Made by a program: the position numbers and the translations under genes. From a virus, in UHGV virus genome UHGV-0257054: 13,291 nucleotides of DNA; one strand, written 5' to 3'. The notes beneath the pieces were generated by a model. The model had not been told where the DNA came from. It saw only the letters and a list, made by a program, of their open reading frames with translations, and ran no database searches. Shown piece after piece: positions 1 through 10,797 of the stretch (positions within the stretch are counted from its first letter, which is position 1; every line of letters starts with the position of its first letter).

Positions 1-65
1 AGGCTGACAGCCTGATTGCAAAATTCAAAGAAGCTGGCGGAACGCTCAGAGAGAGTGAGGTATGA
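1..65 (+). CDS. 3' end of endolysin (lysozyme) gene, partial
   Basis: Frame 3 is open from the window edge ([20 protein letters not shown]) to a TGA at 63-65 that overlaps the Rz ATG at 62 in an ATGA junction. Position directly upstream of Rz/Rz1 matches the holin-endolysin-spanin order of lambdoid and P22-like phages. Too short to confirm by sequence alone. Confidence 0.45.
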
Positions 66-499
66 GCAGAATAACCGCGATTATCTCCGCTCTGGTTATC
101 TGCGTCATCGTCTGCCTTTCATGGGCGGTTAATCATTACCGTGATAACGCCATCGCCTATAAAGACCAGCGCGACAAAGCCACATCCATCATCGCTGATA
201 TGCAGAAGCGTCAACGTGATGTAGCAGAACTCGACGCCAGATACACAAAGGAGCTTGCTGATGCTAACGCTACTATCGAAAGCCTTCGTGCTGATGTTTC
301 TGCTGGGCGTAAGCGCCTGCAAGTCGCCGCCACCTGTGCAAAGTCAACGACCGGAGCCAGCAGCATGGGCGATGGAGAAAGCCCAAGACTTACAGCAGAT
401 GCTGAACTCAATTATTACCGTCTCCGAAGTGGAATCGACAAGATAACCGCGCAGGTTAACTACCTGCAGGAGTACATCAGGACTCAGTGCCTGAAATAA
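62..499 (+). CDS. Rz: Rz-like i-spanin (inner-membrane spanin subunit)
   Basis: 145 aa with an N-terminal hydrophobic segment ([20 protein letters not shown]) followed by a charged, helix-prone periplasmic domain. Has a +1-frame embedded lipoprotein gene (Rz1). Lies after the endolysin 3' end. Confidence 0.85.
261..446 (+). CDS. Rz1: Rz1-like o-spanin (outer-membrane lipoprotein), embedded in Rz in the +1 frame
   Basis: ATG at 261 is preceded by AAGGAG at 248-253. Product [20 protein letters not shown]|[13 protein letters not shown]... has a signal peptide, a lipobox (VSAC) and a proline-rich mature part, as in lambda/P22 Rz1. The ORF track's 255 start is a TTG; the ATG at 261 is more likely. 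Confidence 0.8.
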
Positions 500-530
500 T
501 TTTTTTGCAAATCACAAAGTCAATTTAATG

Positions 531-553
531 AGCCTCGCGATGCGGGGCTTTTT
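531..553 (+). terminator. Rho-independent terminator candidate (first of a tandem pair)
   Basis: GC-rich stem GCCTCG/CGGGGC (one G-U pair), loop CGATG, then a run of five T (549-553), 32 nt after the Rz stop. Confidence 0.55.
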
Positions 554-560
554 GCAATAA

Positions 561-584
561 ATGCGTACCGCAACGCATGTTTTT
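561..584 (+). terminator. Rho-independent terminator candidate (second of a tandem pair)
   Basis: Perfect 6-bp stem ATGCGT/ACGCAT with loop ACCGCA, followed by GTTTTT. An A-tract lies upstream (CAATAAA). Confidence 0.5.
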
Positions 585-699
585 ACACCGAACCTGCCCC
601 TTTGGAATGGGCCTTTGAGGATACCAGTTAGTGCTGGCGAGCCTCGGTGGGCTGGTTTCCTGTGCGGCAAAGGTTCATTTCAAAGAGTAGGTACACGCT

Positions 700-1197
700 A
701 TGAAATCATTAACCCTCTTCAATCAACCAATTCGTATCGGTGAAGATGGCATGATCTGCCTCACTGATATGTGGAAAGCCAGTGGTAAAAGTGAATCTGA
801 ATCTCCGTACCACTACCTGCGAAACAAGCAGACCAAAGAGTTCTTAGCCGAGCTGGAGAAAAACCACGAATCTGTGGTTTTTACTGAGCGCGGTGTACAC
901 GGTGGAACATATGGCGGGAAGTTTGTTGCTTACGATTATGCGGCTTGGTTAAACCCCGGGTTCAAGTACGCGGCCTATAAAGTCCTCGATGACTACTTCA
1001 CCGGAGAACTTCAGCATCGCAACAGCTTAAGTGCGCAGCTCAACATGAAATGTCATGAGTTTGACCAGAAGAAAGACATGGCGAGCTTCTGCGGACAAGG
1101 ACTGGCGGCATGGCGCTATACGAAGCCAGTGTTGGTCGCTGAGATTAACTCCCTGGCTAACCAGCTGCAGATTACGATCCCCGGGCTTCCGGGATGA
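700..1197 (+). CDS. KilA-N domain protein (APSES-type DNA-binding domain; antirepressor/Bro-like family)
   Basis: 165-aa ORF. The N-terminal ~100 aa match the KilA-N pattern as I remember it (IRIGEDGMICLTDMWKASGK..., ...GTYGGKFVAYDYAAWLNPGFKYAAYKVL). Stop overlaps the next ORF's start in ATGA (1194-1197). Confidence 0.6.
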   Translation: MKSLTLFNQPIRIGEDGMICLTDMWKASGKSESESPYHYLRNKQTKEFLAELEKNHESVVFTERGVHGGTYGGKFVAYDYAAWLNPGFKYAAYKVLDDYFTGELQHRNSLSAQLNMKCHEFDQKKDMASFCGQGLAAWRYTKPVLVAEINSLANQLQITIPGLPG

Positions 1198-1451
1198 GTG
1201 ATCGTGTCATTGAATGCGCCTCCAGAGCGGGGCGCGACTTCTCAGAGTTCATGAAAGGCGAGAAGGGCATGATGGAAGCATTGGCCTCGGTGGATGAGTT
1301 TGGCGAGCAGCTGCGCCTCAACGGCTGTGTCAATCATCACTTTGTTAGCTACATGATGCGGAACTCGATCATGCAGGCATTCATGGACATGGCAAAAGCC
1401 GAGAGGAAAGAAGAGCGCCGGCGTAAGCGAGCGGAAGCAAAAGCGAAGTAG
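1194..1451 (+). CDS. Hypothetical 85-aa protein with a highly basic C-terminus, translationally coupled to the KilA-N gene
   Basis: ORF start overlaps the upstream stop (ATGA). C-terminus is KAERKEERRRKRAEAKAK. No family recognised from sequence. Confidence 0.5.
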   Translation: MSDRVIECASRAGRDFSEFMKGEKGMMEALASVDEFGEQLRLNGCVNHHFVSYMMRNSIMQAFMDMAKAERKEERRRKRAEAKAK

Positions 1452-1453
1452 CC

Positions 1454-1488
1454 ATTACAAAGCCTACCTACGGGTGGGCTTGATAATG
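1454..1488 (+). repeat. Copy A of a repeated hairpin element (ATTACAAAGCC ... CCTAC ... GGCTT-GATAATG)
   Basis: Begins 3 nt after the stop at 1449-1451. 9-bp stem AAGCCTACC/GGTGGGCTT (one G-U pair), loop TACG, immediately followed by GATAATG. A second copy lies at 2037-2075. Confidence 0.6.
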
Positions 1489-1677
1489 AAACCGGAGTTA
1501 ATTTCTGGTCACTAATTAACGGCAGTACAGCGATACAACCCAAGCCAGTAAGTGGGGAAATAACACTGGCAGCCACTGAAAGATGAACCTCCTGCCTTAT
1601 GGCAAAAAAGATTCTTTGTGGTGGCGGACTGATGGAAAGACATCCTAATCAAGCAACCACTCCACAGGGTCATAATT

Positions 1678-2034
1678 ATGAACGATCAGCAAATCGAAAA
1701 AGAAATCGTTGAGAAAGGAAAAACCGCTCCGCGAGTTACGCCTCAATATATCGAAAGCATCATTCTTGAAGAGCATTTCTTTACTGCTTATGACGGCATT
1801 CGTGCTGCCAATATGGGCGTTGGCGATTCATGGACAGCGCATAAATCTACAGACCTCCTGACTTTCTGCGTACTGGTGCTGAAGAATGGCTTCACCGTCA
1901 CCGGAGAGAGTGCCTGTGCAAGCCCGGAAAACTTTGATGCAGAAATTGGTCGGAAGATTGCCCGGCAGAATGCTGTAAACAAAATCTGGATGCTCGAAGG
2001 TTACTTGCTGAAGCAGAAGCTAAGCGAACAGTAG
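1678..2034 (+). CDS. Phage protein of the N4-gp49 / Sf6-gp66 family (function unknown)
   Basis: 118-aa ORF. The motif stretch ...TVTGESACASPENFDAEIGRKIARQNAVNKIWMLEGYLL resembles this family as I remember it. Recollection only, no alignment. Confidence 0.5.
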   Translation: MNDQQIEKEIVEKGKTAPRVTPQYIESIILEEHFFTAYDGIRAANMGVGDSWTAHKSTDLLTFCVLVLKNGFTVTGESACASPENFDAEIGRKIARQNAVNKIWMLEGYLLKQKLSEQ

Positions 2035-2036
2035 TT

Positions 2037-2075
2037 ATTACAAAAGCCATTCCCTACAGAATGGCTTTGATAATG
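2037..2075 (+). repeat. Copy B of the repeated hairpin element
   Basis: Begins 3 nt after the stop at 2032-2034. Perfect 10-bp stem AAAGCCATTC/GAATGGCTTT, loop CCTACA, immediately followed by GATAATG. Shares the ATTACAAA(A)GCC prefix, the CCTAC loop core and the GGCTT(T)GATAATG suffix with copy A. Confidence 0.6.
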
Positions 2076-2137
2076 GCTTATACCCTACACGGGATAACTT
2101 AACTGATATCCCTTTTAACGGATAAACGGAGCCAACA

Positions 2138-2380
2138 ATGGCAGAGATTATTCCCATGACTGAAGAACAGAAATTCCAGCTAGAGATTTACAAACTGGTC
2201 ATGAACCAGAACGCAGCCGCAGAGGAAGCATTTCAGTTCATTGGCACTGACGAACTGAAGCTTGAGCTATTCAAAATTCACTTCCAGTCAGGCGGCGCTA
2301 ATTCGGATATCACGATCCGCACATTTGAAGCGGTGCGTAAATCGAAGGAAGCGTTAGACCTGTTCACTACCGGAGCATAA
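2138..2380 (+). CDS. Hypothetical 80-aa protein directly upstream of the small terminase gene
   Basis: ORF with RBS-like AACGGAG upstream. Its stop TAA is 2 nt before the small-terminase ATG at 2383. No family recognised. Confidence 0.5.
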   Translation: MAEIIPMTEEQKFQLEIYKLVMNQNAAAEEAFQFIGTDELKLELFKIHFQSGGANSDITIRTFEAVRKSKEALDLFTTGA

Positions 2381-2382
2381 AC

Positions 2383-2823
2383 ATGGCGCGCCCAACAAAG
2401 TATCAAGAGGCGTATGCCGAACAGGCACGCAAACTGTGCTTGCTGGGCTACACCGATGCAGAACTTGCTGATTTCTTTGAAGTCAGTGAGTCAACTATTA
2501 ACAAGTGGAAGCTTGATTATCCTAAGTTTTCGGAGTCCATAAAAAAGGGTAAGGCCGTCGCTGATGCAGAAGTTAGTGACCGTCTTTATCAACGCGCTAT
2601 GGGCTTTGTGGCTCCAGACATCGATATTCGTGTTATTGAAAACAGAATTGTCGAAACTCCGCTTGAGAAGTATTACCCGCCTGATACAACCGCCGCCATC
2701 TTCTGGCTTAAGAACCGACAGAAGGATAAATGGCGCGACAAGGTTGATCACGAGCTAACAGGCAAAGACGGCGGCGCAATTCAGATTGAAACATCACCGA
2801 TGAGCACTCTATTCGGAAAATGA
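2383..2823 (+). CDS. Terminase small subunit (TerS)
   Basis: 146 aa. The N-terminal helix-turn-helix-like region (GYTDAELADFFEVSESTINKW) is typical of TerS DNA-binding domains. The C-terminal tail ...TGKDGGAIQIETSPMSTLFGK matches my recollection of Sf6 gp1. Stop overlaps the large-terminase ATG (ATGA at 2820-2823). Confidence 0.85.
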   Translation: MARPTKYQEAYAEQARKLCLLGYTDAELADFFEVSESTINKWKLDYPKFSESIKKGKAVADAEVSDRLYQRAMGFVAPDIDIRVIENRIVETPLEKYYPPDTTAAIFWLKNRQKDKWRDKVDHELTGKDGGAIQIETSPMSTLFGK

Positions 2824-4235
2824 CCTCGATTAATCCTATCTTTGAACCGTTCATTGAGGCGCATCGCTACAAAGTTGCCAAAGGCGGTCGAGGTAGCGGT
2901 AAGTCATGGGCAATTGCGAGGCTGCTTGTTGAGGCGGCGCGTCGGCAGCCGGTGCGTATTCTCTGCGCTCGTGAACTGCAAAACAGTATCAGCGATTCGG
3001 TAATCCGGTTGCTTGAAGATACCATCGAGCGTGAAGGGTATACGGCTGAGTTTGAAATTCAGCGTTCCATGATTCGTCATCTCGGAACGAATGCTGAGTT
3101 CATGTTCTACGGCATCAAAAACAACCCGACGAAGATTAAATCGCTCGAAGGCATTGATATCTGCTGGGTGGAGGAAGCGGAAGCGGTAACGAAGGAATCA
3201 TGGGATATCCTGATACCAACCATCCGCAAGCCATTTTCCGAAATATGGGTGAGCTTCAACCCGAAAAACATCCTCGACGATACCTATCAGCGATTCGTAG
3301 TAAACCCTCCCGATGATATTTGTCTGCTGACGGTGAACTACACCGACAACCCGCACTTTCCTGAAGTTCTCCGTCTGGAGATGGAAGAGTGTAAACGCAG
3401 AAACCCGACACTGTATCGTCACATCTGGCTTGGTGAGCCAGTAAGCGCAAGTGATATGGCAATCATCAAACGTGAATGGCTTGAAGCCGCAACCGATGCG
3501 CACAAGAAACTCGGATGGAAAGCGAAAGGCGCTGTTGTCTCTGCGCATGACCCATCAGATACAGGGCCAGATGCTAAAGGTTATGCATCGCGTCACGGTT
3601 CGGTAGTTAAGCGCATTGCCGAAGGTCTGCTGATGGACATCAACGAGGGTGCTGACTGGGCTACTTCGCTGGCGATTGAAGACGGCGCTGACCATTACCT
3701 GTGGGATGGTGATGGCGTCGGTGCGGGCCTACGCAGACAGACAACGGAAGCGTTCTCCGGCAAGAAAATCACCGCCACGATGTTCAAGGGCAGTGAATCG
3801 CCATTCGATGAAGATGCGCCATATCAGGCCGGAGCATGGGCTGATGAAGTCGTACAGGGCGACAATGTTCGCACTATTGGCGATGTGTTCCGCAATAAGC
3901 GAGCACAATTCTATTACGCGCTGGCTGACAGGCTGTATCTGACATATCGGGCGGTTGTTCACGGTGAGTATGCAGACCCAGACGACATGCTGAGTTTCGA
4001 CAAAGAAGCGATAGGCGAGAAGATGCTGGAGAAGCTGTTTGCAGAACTGACGCAGATTCAGCGCAAATTCAATAATAACGGGAAGCTGGAGCTTATGACT
4101 AAGGTCGAAATGAAGCAGAAGCTCGGTATTCCATCTCCTAACCTGGCTGATGCGCTGATGATGTGTATGCATTGCCCAGAGTCGGCTGCGCAACACGACT
4201 ATTCCAGTTACTCAATTCCTTGTGGTGTAGGTTGA
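2820..4235 (+). CDS. Terminase large subunit (TerL; ATPase plus nuclease)
   Basis: 471 aa with a Walker A motif (KGGRGSGKS at residues 21-29) and a Walker B-like motif (ICWVEEAE). Start and length match my recollection of Sf6 gp2. Sits between TerS and portal. Confidence 0.95.
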   Translation: MTSINPIFEPFIEAHRYKVAKGGRGSGKSWAIARLLVEAARRQPVRILCARELQNSISDSVIRLLEDTIEREGYTAEFEIQRSMIRHLGTNAEFMFYGIKNNPTKIKSLEGIDICWVEEAEAVTKESWDILIPTIRKPFSEIWVSFNPKNILDDTYQRFVVNPPDDICLLTVNYTDNPHFPEVLRLEMEECKRRNPTLYRHIWLGEPVSASDMAIIKREWLEAATDAHKKLGWKAKGAVVSAHDPSDTGPDAKGYASRHGSVVKRIAEGLLMDINEGADWATSLAIEDGADHYLWDGDGVGAGLRRQTTEAFSGKKITATMFKGSESPFDEDAPYQAGAWADEVVQGDNVRTIGDVFRNKRAQFYYALADRLYLTYRAVVHGEYADPDDMLSFDKEAIGEKMLEKLFAELTQIQRKFNNNGKLELMTKVEMKQKLGIPSPNLADALMMCMHCPESAAQHDYSSYSIPCGVG

Positions 4236-7437: not shown

Positions 7438-8697
7438 ATGGCTAACCAATTAGCAAAAGACCTTGAAATCATGTTCGAAAACTACGTTGAAGGCTTTGAG
7501 GCCGCCTGCGTAGTTTCCCGTAACGCTAAAAAATTCCGTCCCGGTGATACAGCAATGCAGCGAGCAGGTGATGTTCTGTATCGTCCGCAGCATTACCACA
7601 TGAACATTGAGGAAGGCCTCGACCTCAGCGGAAAAACGCCTACAGCACTGGTTCAGCGCCTTGTTCCTTCTGTATTCAAGGAGCCGAAAAACATTCTGTA
7701 CACTCTGGATGCGCGTGAAATGCGTGACCCTGAGCATAAAACTGAAGCTGGTCGCGCCGCAGGTATGCGCCTTGCTGCACAGATTGACTCTGACCTGATT
7801 TCCATGGTCACGCAGCGTGCTACTAACGTGATCACAATGGCTGACTCAACCACAGGTACACAGGGCCGTGATTTGTGGAACTGTGCGGCAGGTATTGATG
7901 CCACCATGACGGCGATTGGTGTACCTCAGGGTATCAACCGTCGCTCTTTCTGGAACCCCTTCAACTACAAAGACCTTGCTGGCGAGCTTGGTCACCGTGC
8001 CTATGCTCAGGGCGCAACCCTGACAGCATACGAAAAAGCGCAGATCCCTCCGGTTGCTTCCTTTGATAGCTACAAGACCGATATTTCCGGTCGATTACCG
8101 GCAGGAAGCGCTGAAACCTTGACAGTATCAAATCAACCTGAACACAAGGTTGAAGCGAAAGATTCAAATGGCATGCCTGTTGATAACCGACAGGGGACCA
8201 TTACGGTATCTGCTAAAGGCTTGCAGGTTGGCGATGCGTTTACCATCGCGGGTGTGAATTCCGTACACCAGATCACCAAAGATACCACCGGGCAGCCGCA
8301 GGTATTCCGCGTTCTGGCAGTAGACACAGCAGGAACCACCGTAACAATCTCTCCAAAGATTCTCCCTGTTGGAAATGCCGATGTTGCGAGTCGTCCATAT
8401 GCAAACGTCGATGCCAAACCGGCAGAATCAGCAGCAATCACCATTCTCAACAAGAAAGCAGCACCGGCTAACCTGTTCTGGGCTGATGGTTCTGTTGAGC
8501 TGATGTACGGCAAACTAGCGTTCCCGACTGGTCAGGGTCCACAGGTAATGACAGCAACCACCGAGCAGGGCGCTACGCTGATCATGTCTTACGCCTTCGA
8601 CCACATCAAAGGCGTAACCACTGCTCGTTTCACCACTCTGTACGGTTGCTCTGTACTGGTTCCTGAATATACGGGCATCGTTATTGCCGGGCAGTAA
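7438..8697 (+). CDS. Major capsid (coat) protein (P22 gp5-like, HK97 fold)
   Basis: 419 aa immediately after the scaffold gene, with a GGAG RBS. Size and position match P22-like coat proteins. Followed by a strong terminator. Confidence 0.9.
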   Translation: MANQLAKDLEIMFENYVEGFEAACVVSRNAKKFRPGDTAMQRAGDVLYRPQHYHMNIEEGLDLSGKTPTALVQRLVPSVFKEPKNILYTLDAREMRDPEHKTEAGRAAGMRLAAQIDSDLISMVTQRATNVITMADSTTGTQGRDLWNCAAGIDATMTAIGVPQGINRRSFWNPFNYKDLAGELGHRAYAQGATLTAYEKAQIPPVASFDSYKTDISGRLPAGSAETLTVSNQPEHKVEAKDSNGMPVDNRQGTITVSAKGLQVGDAFTIAGVNSVHQITKDTTGQPQVFRVLAVDTAGTTVTISPKILPVGNADVASRPYANVDAKPAESAAITILNKKAAPANLFWADGSVELMYGKLAFPTGQGPQVMTATTEQGATLIMSYAFDHIKGVTTARFTTLYGCSVLVPEYTGIVIAGQ

Positions 8698-9378: not shown

Positions 9379-10797
9379 ATGCCGATTCAGCAACTTCCGC
9401 TTATGAAAGGTGTCGGCAAAGATTTCAGAAACGCCGACTATATCGACTATCTGCCAGTGAATATGTTGGCTACACCCAAAGAAATCCTGAACAGCAGCGG
9501 ATATCTTCGCTCATTCCCGGGCATTGCCAAACGTTCTGATGTGAACGGTGTATCGCGCGGAGTCGAGTACAACATGGCGCAGAATGCTGTATATCGCGTG
9601 TGTGGCGGCAAGCTGTATAAGGGCGAAAGCGAGGTCGGTGATGTTGCCGGAAGTGGTCGCGTATCAATGGCACACGGTAGGACATCACAGGCAGTAGGCG
9701 TTAATGGTCAACTGATCGAGTATCGCTATGATGGCACGGTTAAAACCGTCTCAAACTGGCCTGCAGACAGTGGATTCACTCAGTATGAGTTAGGTTCAGT
9801 TCGCGACATTACGCGCTTGCGTGGGCGTTATGCGTGGTCAAAAGACGGCACTGATTCATGGTTCATCACTGACCTTGAAGACGAATCGCATCCTGACCGT
9901 TACAGCGCACAATATCGCGCAGAATCGCAGCCGGACGGCATCATCGGTATCGGCACATGGCGAGATTTCATCGTCTGTTTTGGTTCATCGACGATTGAAT
10001 ATTTTTCCCTGACTGGTGCAACCACAGTTGGTGCTGCTTTGTATGTCGCACAGCCATCGCTGATGGTGCAGAAAGGCATTGCCGGGACTTACTGCAAAAC
10101 GCCGTTTGCTGATTCGTATGCGTTCATCAGCAATCCGGCAACAGGTGCGCCGTCTGTATATATCATCGGCTCCGGTCAGGTGTCACCAATCGCCAGCGCG
10201 AGCATTGAGAAAATTCTCCGCTCCTACACTGCTGATGAACTGGCTGATGGTGTGATGGAATCGCTGCGGTTTGATGCTCATGAGTTGCTGATTATCCACC
10301 TTCCGCGCCACGTCCTCGTGTACGACGCATCTTCAAGCGCCAATGGTCCGCAATGGTGTGTGTTGAAAACTGGCTTGTATGATGATGTGTACCGCGCTAT
10401 CGACTTCATTTACGAAGGAAATCAGATAACGTGCGGCGATAAGCTGGAATCTGTTACCGGGAAACTGCAATTCGACATCAGCAGCCAGTACGACAAGCAA
10501 CAAGAACACCTGCTGTTTACACCCCTCTTCAAAGCGGATAACGCCAGATGCTTCGATCTGGAGGTGGAATCATCGACGGGTGTTGCTCAGTATGCTGACC
10601 GCCTTTTTCTCTCTGCAACCACTGACGGCATCAATTACGGGCGTGAGCAGATGATTGAGCAGAATGAACCGTTCGTTTACGACAAACGCGTTTTGTGGAA
10701 GCGAGTAGGGCGCATCAGGAAAAATGTCGGCTTCAAATTGCGCGTTATCACGAAGTCACCTGTCACTCTGTCTGGCTGCTCTATTAGGCTGGAGTAA
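9379..10797 (+). CDS. Tail hub protein (P22 gp10-like)
   Basis: 472 aa, the same length as P22 gp10, in the syntenic position between the gp4-like and gp26-like genes. Confidence 0.85.
   Translation: MPIQQLPLMKGVGKDFRNADYIDYLPVNMLATPKEILNSSGYLRSFPGIAKRSDVNGVSRGVEYNMAQNAVYRVCGGKLYKGESEVGDVAGSGRVSMAHGRTSQAVGVNGQLIEYRYDGTVKTVSNWPADSGFTQYELGSVRDITRLRGRYAWSKDGTDSWFITDLEDESHPDRYSAQYRAESQPDGIIGIGTWRDFIVCFGSSTIEYFSLTGATTVGAALYVAQPSLMVQKGIAGTYCKTPFADSYAFISNPATGAPSVYIIGSGQVSPIASASIEKILRSYTADELADGVMESLRFDAHELLIIHLPRHVLVYDASSSANGPQWCVLKTGLYDDVYRAIDFIYEGNQITCGDKLESVTGKLQFDISSQYDKQQEHLLFTPLFKADNARCFDLEVESSTGVAQYADRLFLSATTDGINYGREQMIEQNEPFVYDKRVLWKRVGRIRKNVGFKLRVITKSPVTLSGCSIRLE

Follow-up and report, generated by a model that had tools for sequence, protein, structure and literature searches.

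A probable late-operon cargo slot between Rz and the terminase genes of a P22-like Escherichia coli prophage, carrying a putative Acb4-family sponge

The interval between the i-spanin gene Rz and the terminase genes is already known from phage P22 to be accessory and dispensable. Its order in P22 is Rz, rha, orf25, pid (on the opposite strand), orf80, orf59c and gene 3. The pid gene, between orf25 and orf80, has been described as a genuine moron locus, and its site in relatives is either empty or occupied by another insert (Cenens et al. 2013, PMC3573128). P22 deleted for orf25-orf80 is viable, and both orf25 and orf80 are dispensable for lytic growth and lysogeny (PMC3573128, PMC11016777, bioRxiv 10.1101/2023.08.15.553423). 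Here, we analyse the corresponding interval of UHGV virus genome UHGV-0257054, a stretch of 13,291 nucleotides (nt; hereafter the window) that represents the late region of a P22-like (HK620/Sf6/CUS-3-type) Escherichia coli prophage. Four genes lie in this interval, encoding a KilA-N protein, an 85-amino-acid (aa) product (ORF85), a homologue of the phage protein Acb4 and a DUF2560 protein.

The founding member of the Acb4 family is Acb4 of phage SPO1, a 96-aa protein forming a tetrameric pinwheel that holds four molecules of 3'3'-cyclic GMP-AMP (cGAMP) in pockets at the protomer interfaces, with a dissociation constant of about 157 nM (PMC11722364). SPO1 Acb4 also binds other cGAMP isomers and cyclic UMP-AMP (cUA), and it rescued a T4 mutant from a CdnE cyclic-oligonucleotide-based antiphage signalling system (CBASS) (PMC11722364). 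All eight purified Acb4 homologues bound 3'3'-cGAMP and none bound cyclic di-GMP; those from phages of Gram-negative hosts also bound cyclic di-AMP (c-di-AMP) (PMC11722364). The family has been defined as PF13876, with 1,331 homologues (Chang et al., PMC11722364).

We consider it probable that the interval in the window is a dispensable, recombination-shuffled cargo region within the Q-antiterminated late operon of the P22-like (HK620/Sf6-type) prophage. The slot would combine fixed non-coding scaffolding with exchangeable coding inserts: Rz/Rz1 would be followed by two terminator-like hairpins, a leader resembling the P22 small RNA P22F, a first sub-slot (KilA-N/ORF11CD3 plus ORF85), hairpin A, a spacer resembling the P22 small RNA P22G, a second sub-slot (the acb4 cassette with hairpin B, or hairpin C alone), a second leader, DUF2560 and the small terminase gene TerS.

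Evidence for such a slot comes from its variability. We collected 80 IMG/VR loci chosen by a 93-99% identical Rz alone; since anchoring used only Rz, the sample is unbiased for downstream content. Among the 50 loci bearing DUF2560 (the window and reference phages included), 30 distinct gene contents were observed between Rz and DUF2560, and the PF13876 (Acb4) gene was present in 14. A first-pass annotation of the window had described a variable accessory slot, and these 30 architectures, together with the deletable P22 counterpart, bear this out. Far from recurring in every relative, which would have spoken against that description, the four genes co-occur only in the window and in one other locus (L005). 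Likewise, no phage record and only 11 of 5,426 complete E. coli genomes cover at least 80% of window positions 1-2900. The general order of the slot is an optional 50-aa open reading frame (ORF) of the Sf6 gene 65 type, one gene of 160-200 aa, an optional PF13876 gene and DUF2560. The middle position is most often taken by Rha plus ORF11CD3; elsewhere it holds KilA-N plus ORF11CD3 followed by ORF85 (the window type), other KilA-N proteins, a fusion of an ORF85-like N-domain with T5orf172/MUG113, a Tad2-like gene (PF11195), HNH, DUF551, or nothing.

The joints between inserts can be located in several places. The KilA-N/ORF11CD3 and Rha/ORF11CD3 proteins have a common C-terminal IPGL motif (window 1170-1197), and the start of the downstream spacer, CACTAATTAA (1509-1520), corresponds to the final rha codons in Rha-bearing loci, which together place the left mosaic joint at the 3' end of the sub-slot 1 gene. 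The HK97-like siphovirus mEpX1 carries the same block (KilA-N, the 85-aa ORF, gp66 and a truncated orf80), and the block therefore moves with the lysis side and not with P22-type packaging genes. In mEpX1 (L092 3001-3138), as in the HK97-like siphoviruses HK140, mEp234, mEp506 and HK106, the first 28 codons of DUF2560 are followed by an HNH endonuclease, indicating a further mosaic joint inside that gene.

The gene at 1678-2034 encodes a 118-aa product that matches PF13876 (Phage_gp49_66) over the entire profile (1-82 of 82; 118.6 bits against a cut-off of 27, E = 1.7e-34). Table S3 of PMC11722364 includes a Shigella dysenteriae protein (A0A2S8DH85) identical to it at 116 of 118 positions, as well as Sf6 gp66 (Q716B1). 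A phmmer search of the PDB matched the protein to 9e4w, 'anti-CBASS 4 (Acb4)' (E = 0.006), and a 21-sequence profile improved this match to E = 7.8e-5. The AlphaFold2 (AF2) model (predicted local distance difference test score, pLDDT, 80.7) displays N-terminal helices, three strands and a long C-terminal helix (H3-12, H22-28, E29-36, H37-44, H56-60, E61-68, E73-79, H88-117). This predicted structure corresponds to the Acb4 protomer fold, with N-terminal helices, three antiparallel beta-strands and C-terminal helices around a core like that of double-stranded RNA-binding domains. The best 13 Foldseek matches of the model in the PDB were all 9e4w chains (probability 1.00, target-normalised template modelling score 0.62-0.71), and the next match was about 100-fold weaker.

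For the ligand pocket, the numbering of SPO1 Acb4 was fixed from the native 96-aa sequence of an SPO1-like phage, and the contact set comprised K36, F48, E49, V56, Y57, F62, N63, I66, T70 and K81. K36 and K81 fall outside the stretch aligned by the hidden Markov model, so that eight contact residues were compared. F48, F62 and I66 are kept (F72, F86 and I90 in the window protein), and V56, N63, E49, Y57 and T70 are altered (to C80, D87, T73, A81 and I94, respectively). By its Pfam match and predicted fold, the product of 1678-2034 is a member of the Acb4 family and a putative sponge; its ligand pocket is conserved only in part. The earlier view that none of the four genes could be assigned a function from sequence alone is therefore outdated for this gene, PF13876 being the Acb4 family of cyclic-dinucleotide sponges (PMC11722364). 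By homology to SPO1 Acb4, the product would assemble as a tetramer and sequester cGAMP-type, cUA-type and probably c-di-AMP CBASS signals; the host effector would then stay inactive and the phage could complete its cycle. Within the clade, residues 1-40 and 61-118 of the Acb4 homologues are nearly invariant, and residues 41-60 (window 1798-1857) form a hypervariable, length-variable loop that accounts for the main difference between the 118-aa and 126-aa alleles. In RefSeq the protein is still named 'Gp49 family protein', and one phage record labels a homologue 'anti-CRISPR'.

Anti-defence genes had been guessed to reside in the slot, and this guess gains support from the Acb4 homologue here and from the Tad2-like gene (PF11195, 86.6 bits) that occupies the KilA/Rha position in relatives. 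In phage Huey (L004 2221-2721) the Tad2-like gene lies directly beside an Acb4 homologue; it also occurs in L042, and in L024 it is split into two fragments (7660-7917 and 9826-10098) parted by an insert of about 1.9 kb. Fusions of Tad2 with Acb4 domains are reported to be frequent in other phages (Sorek laboratory, PMC12265669). In the window, the equivalent position is held by the KilA-N gene (700-1197, + strand, 165 aa; HK620 hkbK type), whose product matches KilA-N (PF04383, E = 1.3e-15, 57.6 bits, cut-off 23.8) and, at its C-terminus, ORF11CD3 (PF10549, E = 2.4e-13, 50.5 bits, cut-off 25), and by ORF85 (1194-1451, + strand; HK620 hkbL/HK97 gp61 family). ORF85 is translationally coupled to the KilA-N gene, its start overlapping the KilA-N stop (ATGA), and follows it in all 10 loci having the window-type KilA-N. 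It matches phrog_875 (E = 3e-54), has no Pfam match and belongs to a narrow enterobacterial prophage family of 138 clusters that includes HK97 gp61; a search of its homologues found no informative domains. ORF85 is 28% identical (E = 3e-11) to the N-terminal domain of the T5orf172 fusions that replace it elsewhere in the slot, and it may be a detached module of T5orf172/MUG113 fusion proteins. The latter, with an ORF85-like N-domain fused to a GIY-YIG-like T5orf172/MUG113 domain, are found at L016 7783-8268 and L014 670-1194. Single-sequence PDB searches with the KilA-N, ORF85 and DUF2560 proteins returned chance matches only. PADLOC gave one weak, local match of the KilA-N domain to the candidate PDC-S22 (1.2e-8) and none for the other three proteins, and we rejected the block as a defence system on this ground. 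The position of KilA-N/ORF85 is filled in other relatives by Rha, a T5orf172 fusion, a different KilA-N protein or a Tad2-like sponge.

The scaffolding between these inserts is itself distinctive. Internal hairpin elements had been proposed within the block, and they prove to be far more stable than expected by chance: hairpin A (1454-1487, after the ORF85 stop; ATTA-CA-[9 bp stem, UACG loop]-GA-TAAT) and hairpin B (2037-2074, after the acb4 stop; ATTA-CA-[10 bp stem, 6-nt loop]-GA-TAAT), both on the + strand, have minimum free energies (MFE) of -20.9 and -20.2 kcal/mol, with z = -6.0 each and none of 200 dinucleotide shuffles as stable. Hairpins A, B and C have the common form ATTR-CA-[9-10 bp stem, 3-6 nt loop]-GA-YAAT. 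Hairpin A and the spacer of about 190 nt that follows it are present whatever the upstream cargo, in Acb4-plus and Acb4-minus alignments alike. Hairpins B and C are mutually exclusive, hairpin C of Acb4-minus loci being replaced by the Acb4 cassette. According to the locus alignments, this cassette comprises a 33-nt leader, the ORF and hairpin B (window 1645-2074, + strand). The insertion point of pid in P22 is only a few bases past the 3' side of hairpin C. Annotated P22 orf25 (L091 1816-1893) has its ATG within the loop and 3' arm of that hairpin, and its frame continues into the pid insert; as annotated, orf25 is probably not a real gene. An optional 58-nt insertion occurs right after hairpin A in HK620, Sf6 and L027 (L001 about 3170-3230; L002); the window does not have it.

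Across 27 distinct hairpin variants, 98.6% of cells were paired, against 88.7 +/- 1.0% in shuffles and 26-51% in slid registers, and five of the 13 pairs had changed on both sides. G.U intermediates occur within hairpin types, which indicates that selection acts on RNA of the sense strand. The 93 typed copies are all located 156-2,866 nt past the Rz stop; about 490 kb of upstream sequence contained none. The hairpins form a conserved, covarying RNA motif confined to the slot. An Rfam E-value scan of window 1-3000 returned a single chance snoRNA match only. As to their role, no U-tract was found after hairpins A, B or C: hairpin A is followed by GAAACC and hairpin B by GGCUUAUAC. Accordingly, A and B were rejected as intrinsic terminators.

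Two of the non-coding stretches correspond to P22F and P22G, sense-strand small RNAs detected in P22 infection by a 2026 small-RNA-seq study (PMC13397905). The conserved leader 5' of the KilA-N gene (606-686, + strand) is 100% identical to the published P22F over 81 nt, and the non-coding spacer at 1509-1644 (+ strand), the P22G core, is 95.7% identical to P22G over 138 nt. This spacer was found in 49 of the 50 DUF2560 loci, with a median identity to the window of 97.1% (45 loci). The corresponding values at third codon positions are 89.5% in Rz and 93.8% in DUF2560 (about 98% at first plus second positions), and the spacer therefore appears to be constrained. Structured small RNAs were rejected as an explanation for both stretches (MFE z = -0.6 for the P22F-like leader and -0.4 for the P22G-like spacer), and the spacer matched no Rfam family. 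The spacer also has an anti-Shine-Dalgarno-like ACCUCC (1587-1644) and holds the start of a conserved 15-codon ORF, MAKKILCGGGLMERH, from position 1600. We did not retain the latter as a gene: it has no Shine-Dalgarno sequence, its 3' part varies with the downstream insert, and a coding role is improbable.

The 3' end of P22G falls inside the 5' arm of hairpin C, which supports the view that the hairpins act as RNA processing or 3'-stabilising sites. The hairpins would be selected as RNA, probably serving in this capacity in the late transcript, and the shared hairpin arms would mark where cassettes are exchanged. We also put forward, as a tentative proposal, a dedicated RNA element (ATTR-CA-[stem-loop]-GA-YAAT, with its invariant 2x2 internal loop) that would organise the slot together with the constrained P22G spacer. 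It would provide ribonuclease processing and stability sites freeing cargo messages and abundant small RNAs, and its arms would be the joints at which Acb4, Tad2-like and pid inserts are swapped between P22-like podoviruses and HK97-like siphoviruses. The hairpins might instead be DNA-level recombination linkers or plain terminators, without any part in RNA processing or stability. We find this doubtful: although they sit exactly at cassette boundaries, different types have outer arms in common and the Sf6 record has boundary sequences annotated elsewhere, the G.U wobbles at several stem positions work only in sense-strand RNA, the inner stems differ in sequence yet keep their pairing, a U-tract is missing, and the P22G end maps within hairpin C. 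The linker and RNA roles are in any case mutually compatible.

The first-pass annotation had called the block 'moron-like'. One expectation for a moron, presence in some relatives and absence or replacement in others, agrees with the 30 architectures among 50 loci and the Acb4 gene in 14 of 50. An own promoter was not detected: even at 7 of 12 matches, a consensus scan, which is a weak test, found no sigma-70-like site on the + strand at 480-720 or 1440-1700. Nor was an own factor-independent terminator, hairpins A and B having no U-tract. In the strict sense, with its own promoter, terminator and expression in the lysogen, the designation is thus unsupported for these late-strand genes. The block shares its strand with Q, holin, endolysin and Rz on one side and with the terminase genes on the other. 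The late genes of the P22-like prophage BTP1 make up a single polycistronic operon; in BTP1 lysogens the opposite-strand pid is the only highly expressed gene of the slot (more than 100 transcripts per million, TPM), and the sense-strand late genes reach a TPM of 10-20, attributed to spontaneous induction (PMC7067206). Transcription of the block with the late operon is suggested by the gene order, the strand, the lack of promoter-like sites and the BTP1 transcriptomics. Most likely, Q-modified polymerase would read through the post-Rz hairpins and transcribe all four genes with the late genes, and the same hairpins would stop unmodified polymerase. These hairpins (531-584, + strand; 531-551 followed by U5, and 561-578 followed by GU5) have an MFE of -21.5 kcal/mol (z = -2.3) and, with GC-rich stems and U-runs, are predicted intrinsic terminators, which confirms as terminator-like sequence the tandem terminators described upstream of the block.

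A different explanation would have the four genes be classical morons, with their own promoter and terminator, expressed in the repressed prophage and benefiting the lysogen, for example through superinfection exclusion or host regulation. The P22/BTP1 interval does hold pid, a genuine moron strongly expressed in BTP1 lysogens, the upstream terminator-like hairpins could insulate the block, and the KilA-N domain has its weak local resemblance (1.2e-8) to the PADLOC candidate PDC-S22. However, pid runs antisense to the late genes and is followed by a Rho-independent terminator of its own, whereas the four genes of the window are on the late strand, no sigma-70-like site precedes KilA-N or acb4, and hairpins A and B do not terminate in a U-tract; the low, induction-derived signal of the sense-strand late genes in BTP1 points the same way. 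Moreover, a signal sponge expressed in the lysogen would disarm the host's own CBASS. We regard this explanation as improbable, and the four genes are better described as late-operon cargo than as classical morons, with the timing of their expression judged by comparison with BTP1 and P22.

DUF2560 (2138-2380, + strand, 80 aa; P22 orf80/HK620 hkbM/Sf6 gp67) forms the right end of the slot, and its description as variable cargo was not borne out: the gene adjoins the packaging genes, is nearly constant and has a narrow, P22-like distribution. Its product matches PF10834 (E = 2.6e-42, 143.3 bits, cut-off 25) and is 96% identical to P22 Orf80. In a set of 5.8 billion proteins, the family amounts to 90 clusters (at 90% identity), every one of them enterobacterial, and it occurs in 158 phage records, essentially all P22-like. 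The gene always immediately precedes the packaging genes, regardless of the cargo on its left or the TerS type on its right. The AF2 model is a small four-helix protein (pLDDT 77), for which Foldseek found nothing in the PDB at E < 1. A scan of contigs with the DUF2560 profile yielded six loci, all at least 96% identical and uninformative for cross-species architecture. The least probable alternative, that the block, or DUF2560 if nothing else in it, belongs to the lysis or packaging machinery as a conserved functional component, could appeal to the presence of DUF2560 in 49 of 50 loci also having the P22G spacer, to its fixed place directly before the packaging genes, to its 95-100% identity across E. 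coli and Salmonella phages and to its stop lying 2 nt before the TerS start, but it is contradicted by the viability of P22 without orf25-orf80 and the reported dispensability of orf80 for lytic growth and lysogeny, by the constancy of DUF2560 while the downstream TerS type changes, by the mere 28-codon stub kept in HK97-like siphoviruses, and by the absence of the other three genes from most relatives. DUF2560 is a conserved late gene that is dispensable in P22.

The left boundary of the slot is formed by Rz (62-499, + strand; PF03245, E = 1.8e-36) with the embedded Rz1 (255-446, + strand; PF06085, E = 2.3e-20), and the right boundary by TerS (2383-2823, + strand; phrog_309, E = 1e-67), followed by TerL (2820-4235, + strand). 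The leader of DUF2560 (2075-2137, + strand) is conserved, and the P22 pid insert falls within the equivalent stretch. The ORF listing agrees with the four + strand ORFs previously placed between Rz/Rz1 and TerS, and Pfam and PHROGs matches uphold the family labels given to them (KilA-N, gp49/Sf6-gp66). The closest genome is that of E. coli EC20 (99.6% over window 1-2900), where the nin genes, Q, holin, endolysin, Rz, the four genes, terminase and portal follow each other on a single strand. The EC20 match (L094, NZ_JBXRYH010000004.1) is annotated on a 176-kb circular 'plasmid p3' and not on the chromosome.

Several points weigh against our interpretation. The timing of expression is derived from BTP1 and P22, not from the prophage of the window, and an unconventional or factor-dependent promoter is possible, a consensus scan being a weak test. 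Only three of the eight aligned SPO1 ligand contacts (F48, F62 and I66) are identical in the window protein, and its ligand range may differ because of the E49 to T, Y57 to A and T70 to I replacements. Late synthesis of a sponge encoded after the lysis genes may also limit the protection that it affords. The covariation derives from three related hairpin lineages plus within-type variants, so that independent events are few, and the evidence for P22F and P22G is one small-RNA-seq study, so that the two might be intermediates of RNA decay.

Taken together, the block appears to be an ordinary example of a known dispensable mosaic slot, with one cargo gene explained, on sequence and modelling grounds, as a putative Acb4-family sponge; only the slot-specific hairpin motif and the constrained spacer go beyond what had been documented. 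A probable anti-CBASS sponge is thereby placed in the late operon of common temperate phages of E. coli, Shigella and Salmonella, and the Rz-to-terminase slot would collect signal sponges, Acb4 here and Tad2-like proteins in relatives. This should be of use for re-annotating the thousands of prophages in which the gene is still labelled 'Gp49 family protein', and it points to further anti-defence candidates among the KilA-N/ORF85, T5orf172-fusion and DUF2560 genes. The hairpins and spacer offer a tractable case for studying how cargo is expressed and exchanged in a phage late operon.

Compared with SPO1 Acb4 (PDB 9e4w), the window protein keeps the predicted fold and the hydrophobic and aromatic pocket residues F48, F62 and I66. 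It is longer, however (118 aa against 96 aa), with an extended N-terminal region and the hypervariable 41-60 loop, and it has T in place of the guanine-reading E49, A in place of Y57 and I in place of T70. SPO1 Acb4 comes from a Bacillus phage, whereas the acb4 gene of the window lies in the late operon of a temperate podovirus. With respect to Tad2 (PF11195) and the Tad2-Acb4 fusions, relatives have a Tad2-like gene at this site, which neighbours Acb4 in Huey and so echoes the common fusion of the two sponge domains; the window has no Tad2-like gene, and KilA-N/ORF85 take that position instead. The mRNAs of phage T7 are processed at intergenic RNase III hairpins. The likeness, by analogy only, is that both are long hairpins with internal loops placed right after stop codons in a polycistronic phage transcript, and that the slot hairpins would leave 3' hairpins on upstream segments. 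In contrast, there is no sequence similarity between them, the slot hairpins have shorter stems, of 13-14 bp, and their internal loop is a symmetric 2x2 CA/GA loop; their cleavage is a prediction. Classical morons of lambdoid phages, in the sense of Hendrix and Juhala, are likewise extra genes between conserved late-operon genes that occur in some relatives only. Unlike them, the genes of the window have no detected promoter or U-tract terminator of their own and are all co-oriented with the late operon. Another parallel is the P22 pid/orf25-orf80 region, which occupies the same Rz-orf80 interval, has the same insert-or-none pattern in relatives and is dispensable in P22. Both loci include the common conserved spacer, and hairpin C of P22 is replaced by Acb4 in the window; the pid insert follows immediately 3' of hairpin C, is encoded on the other strand and has a terminator of its own, whereas the cargo of the window is carried on the sense strand.

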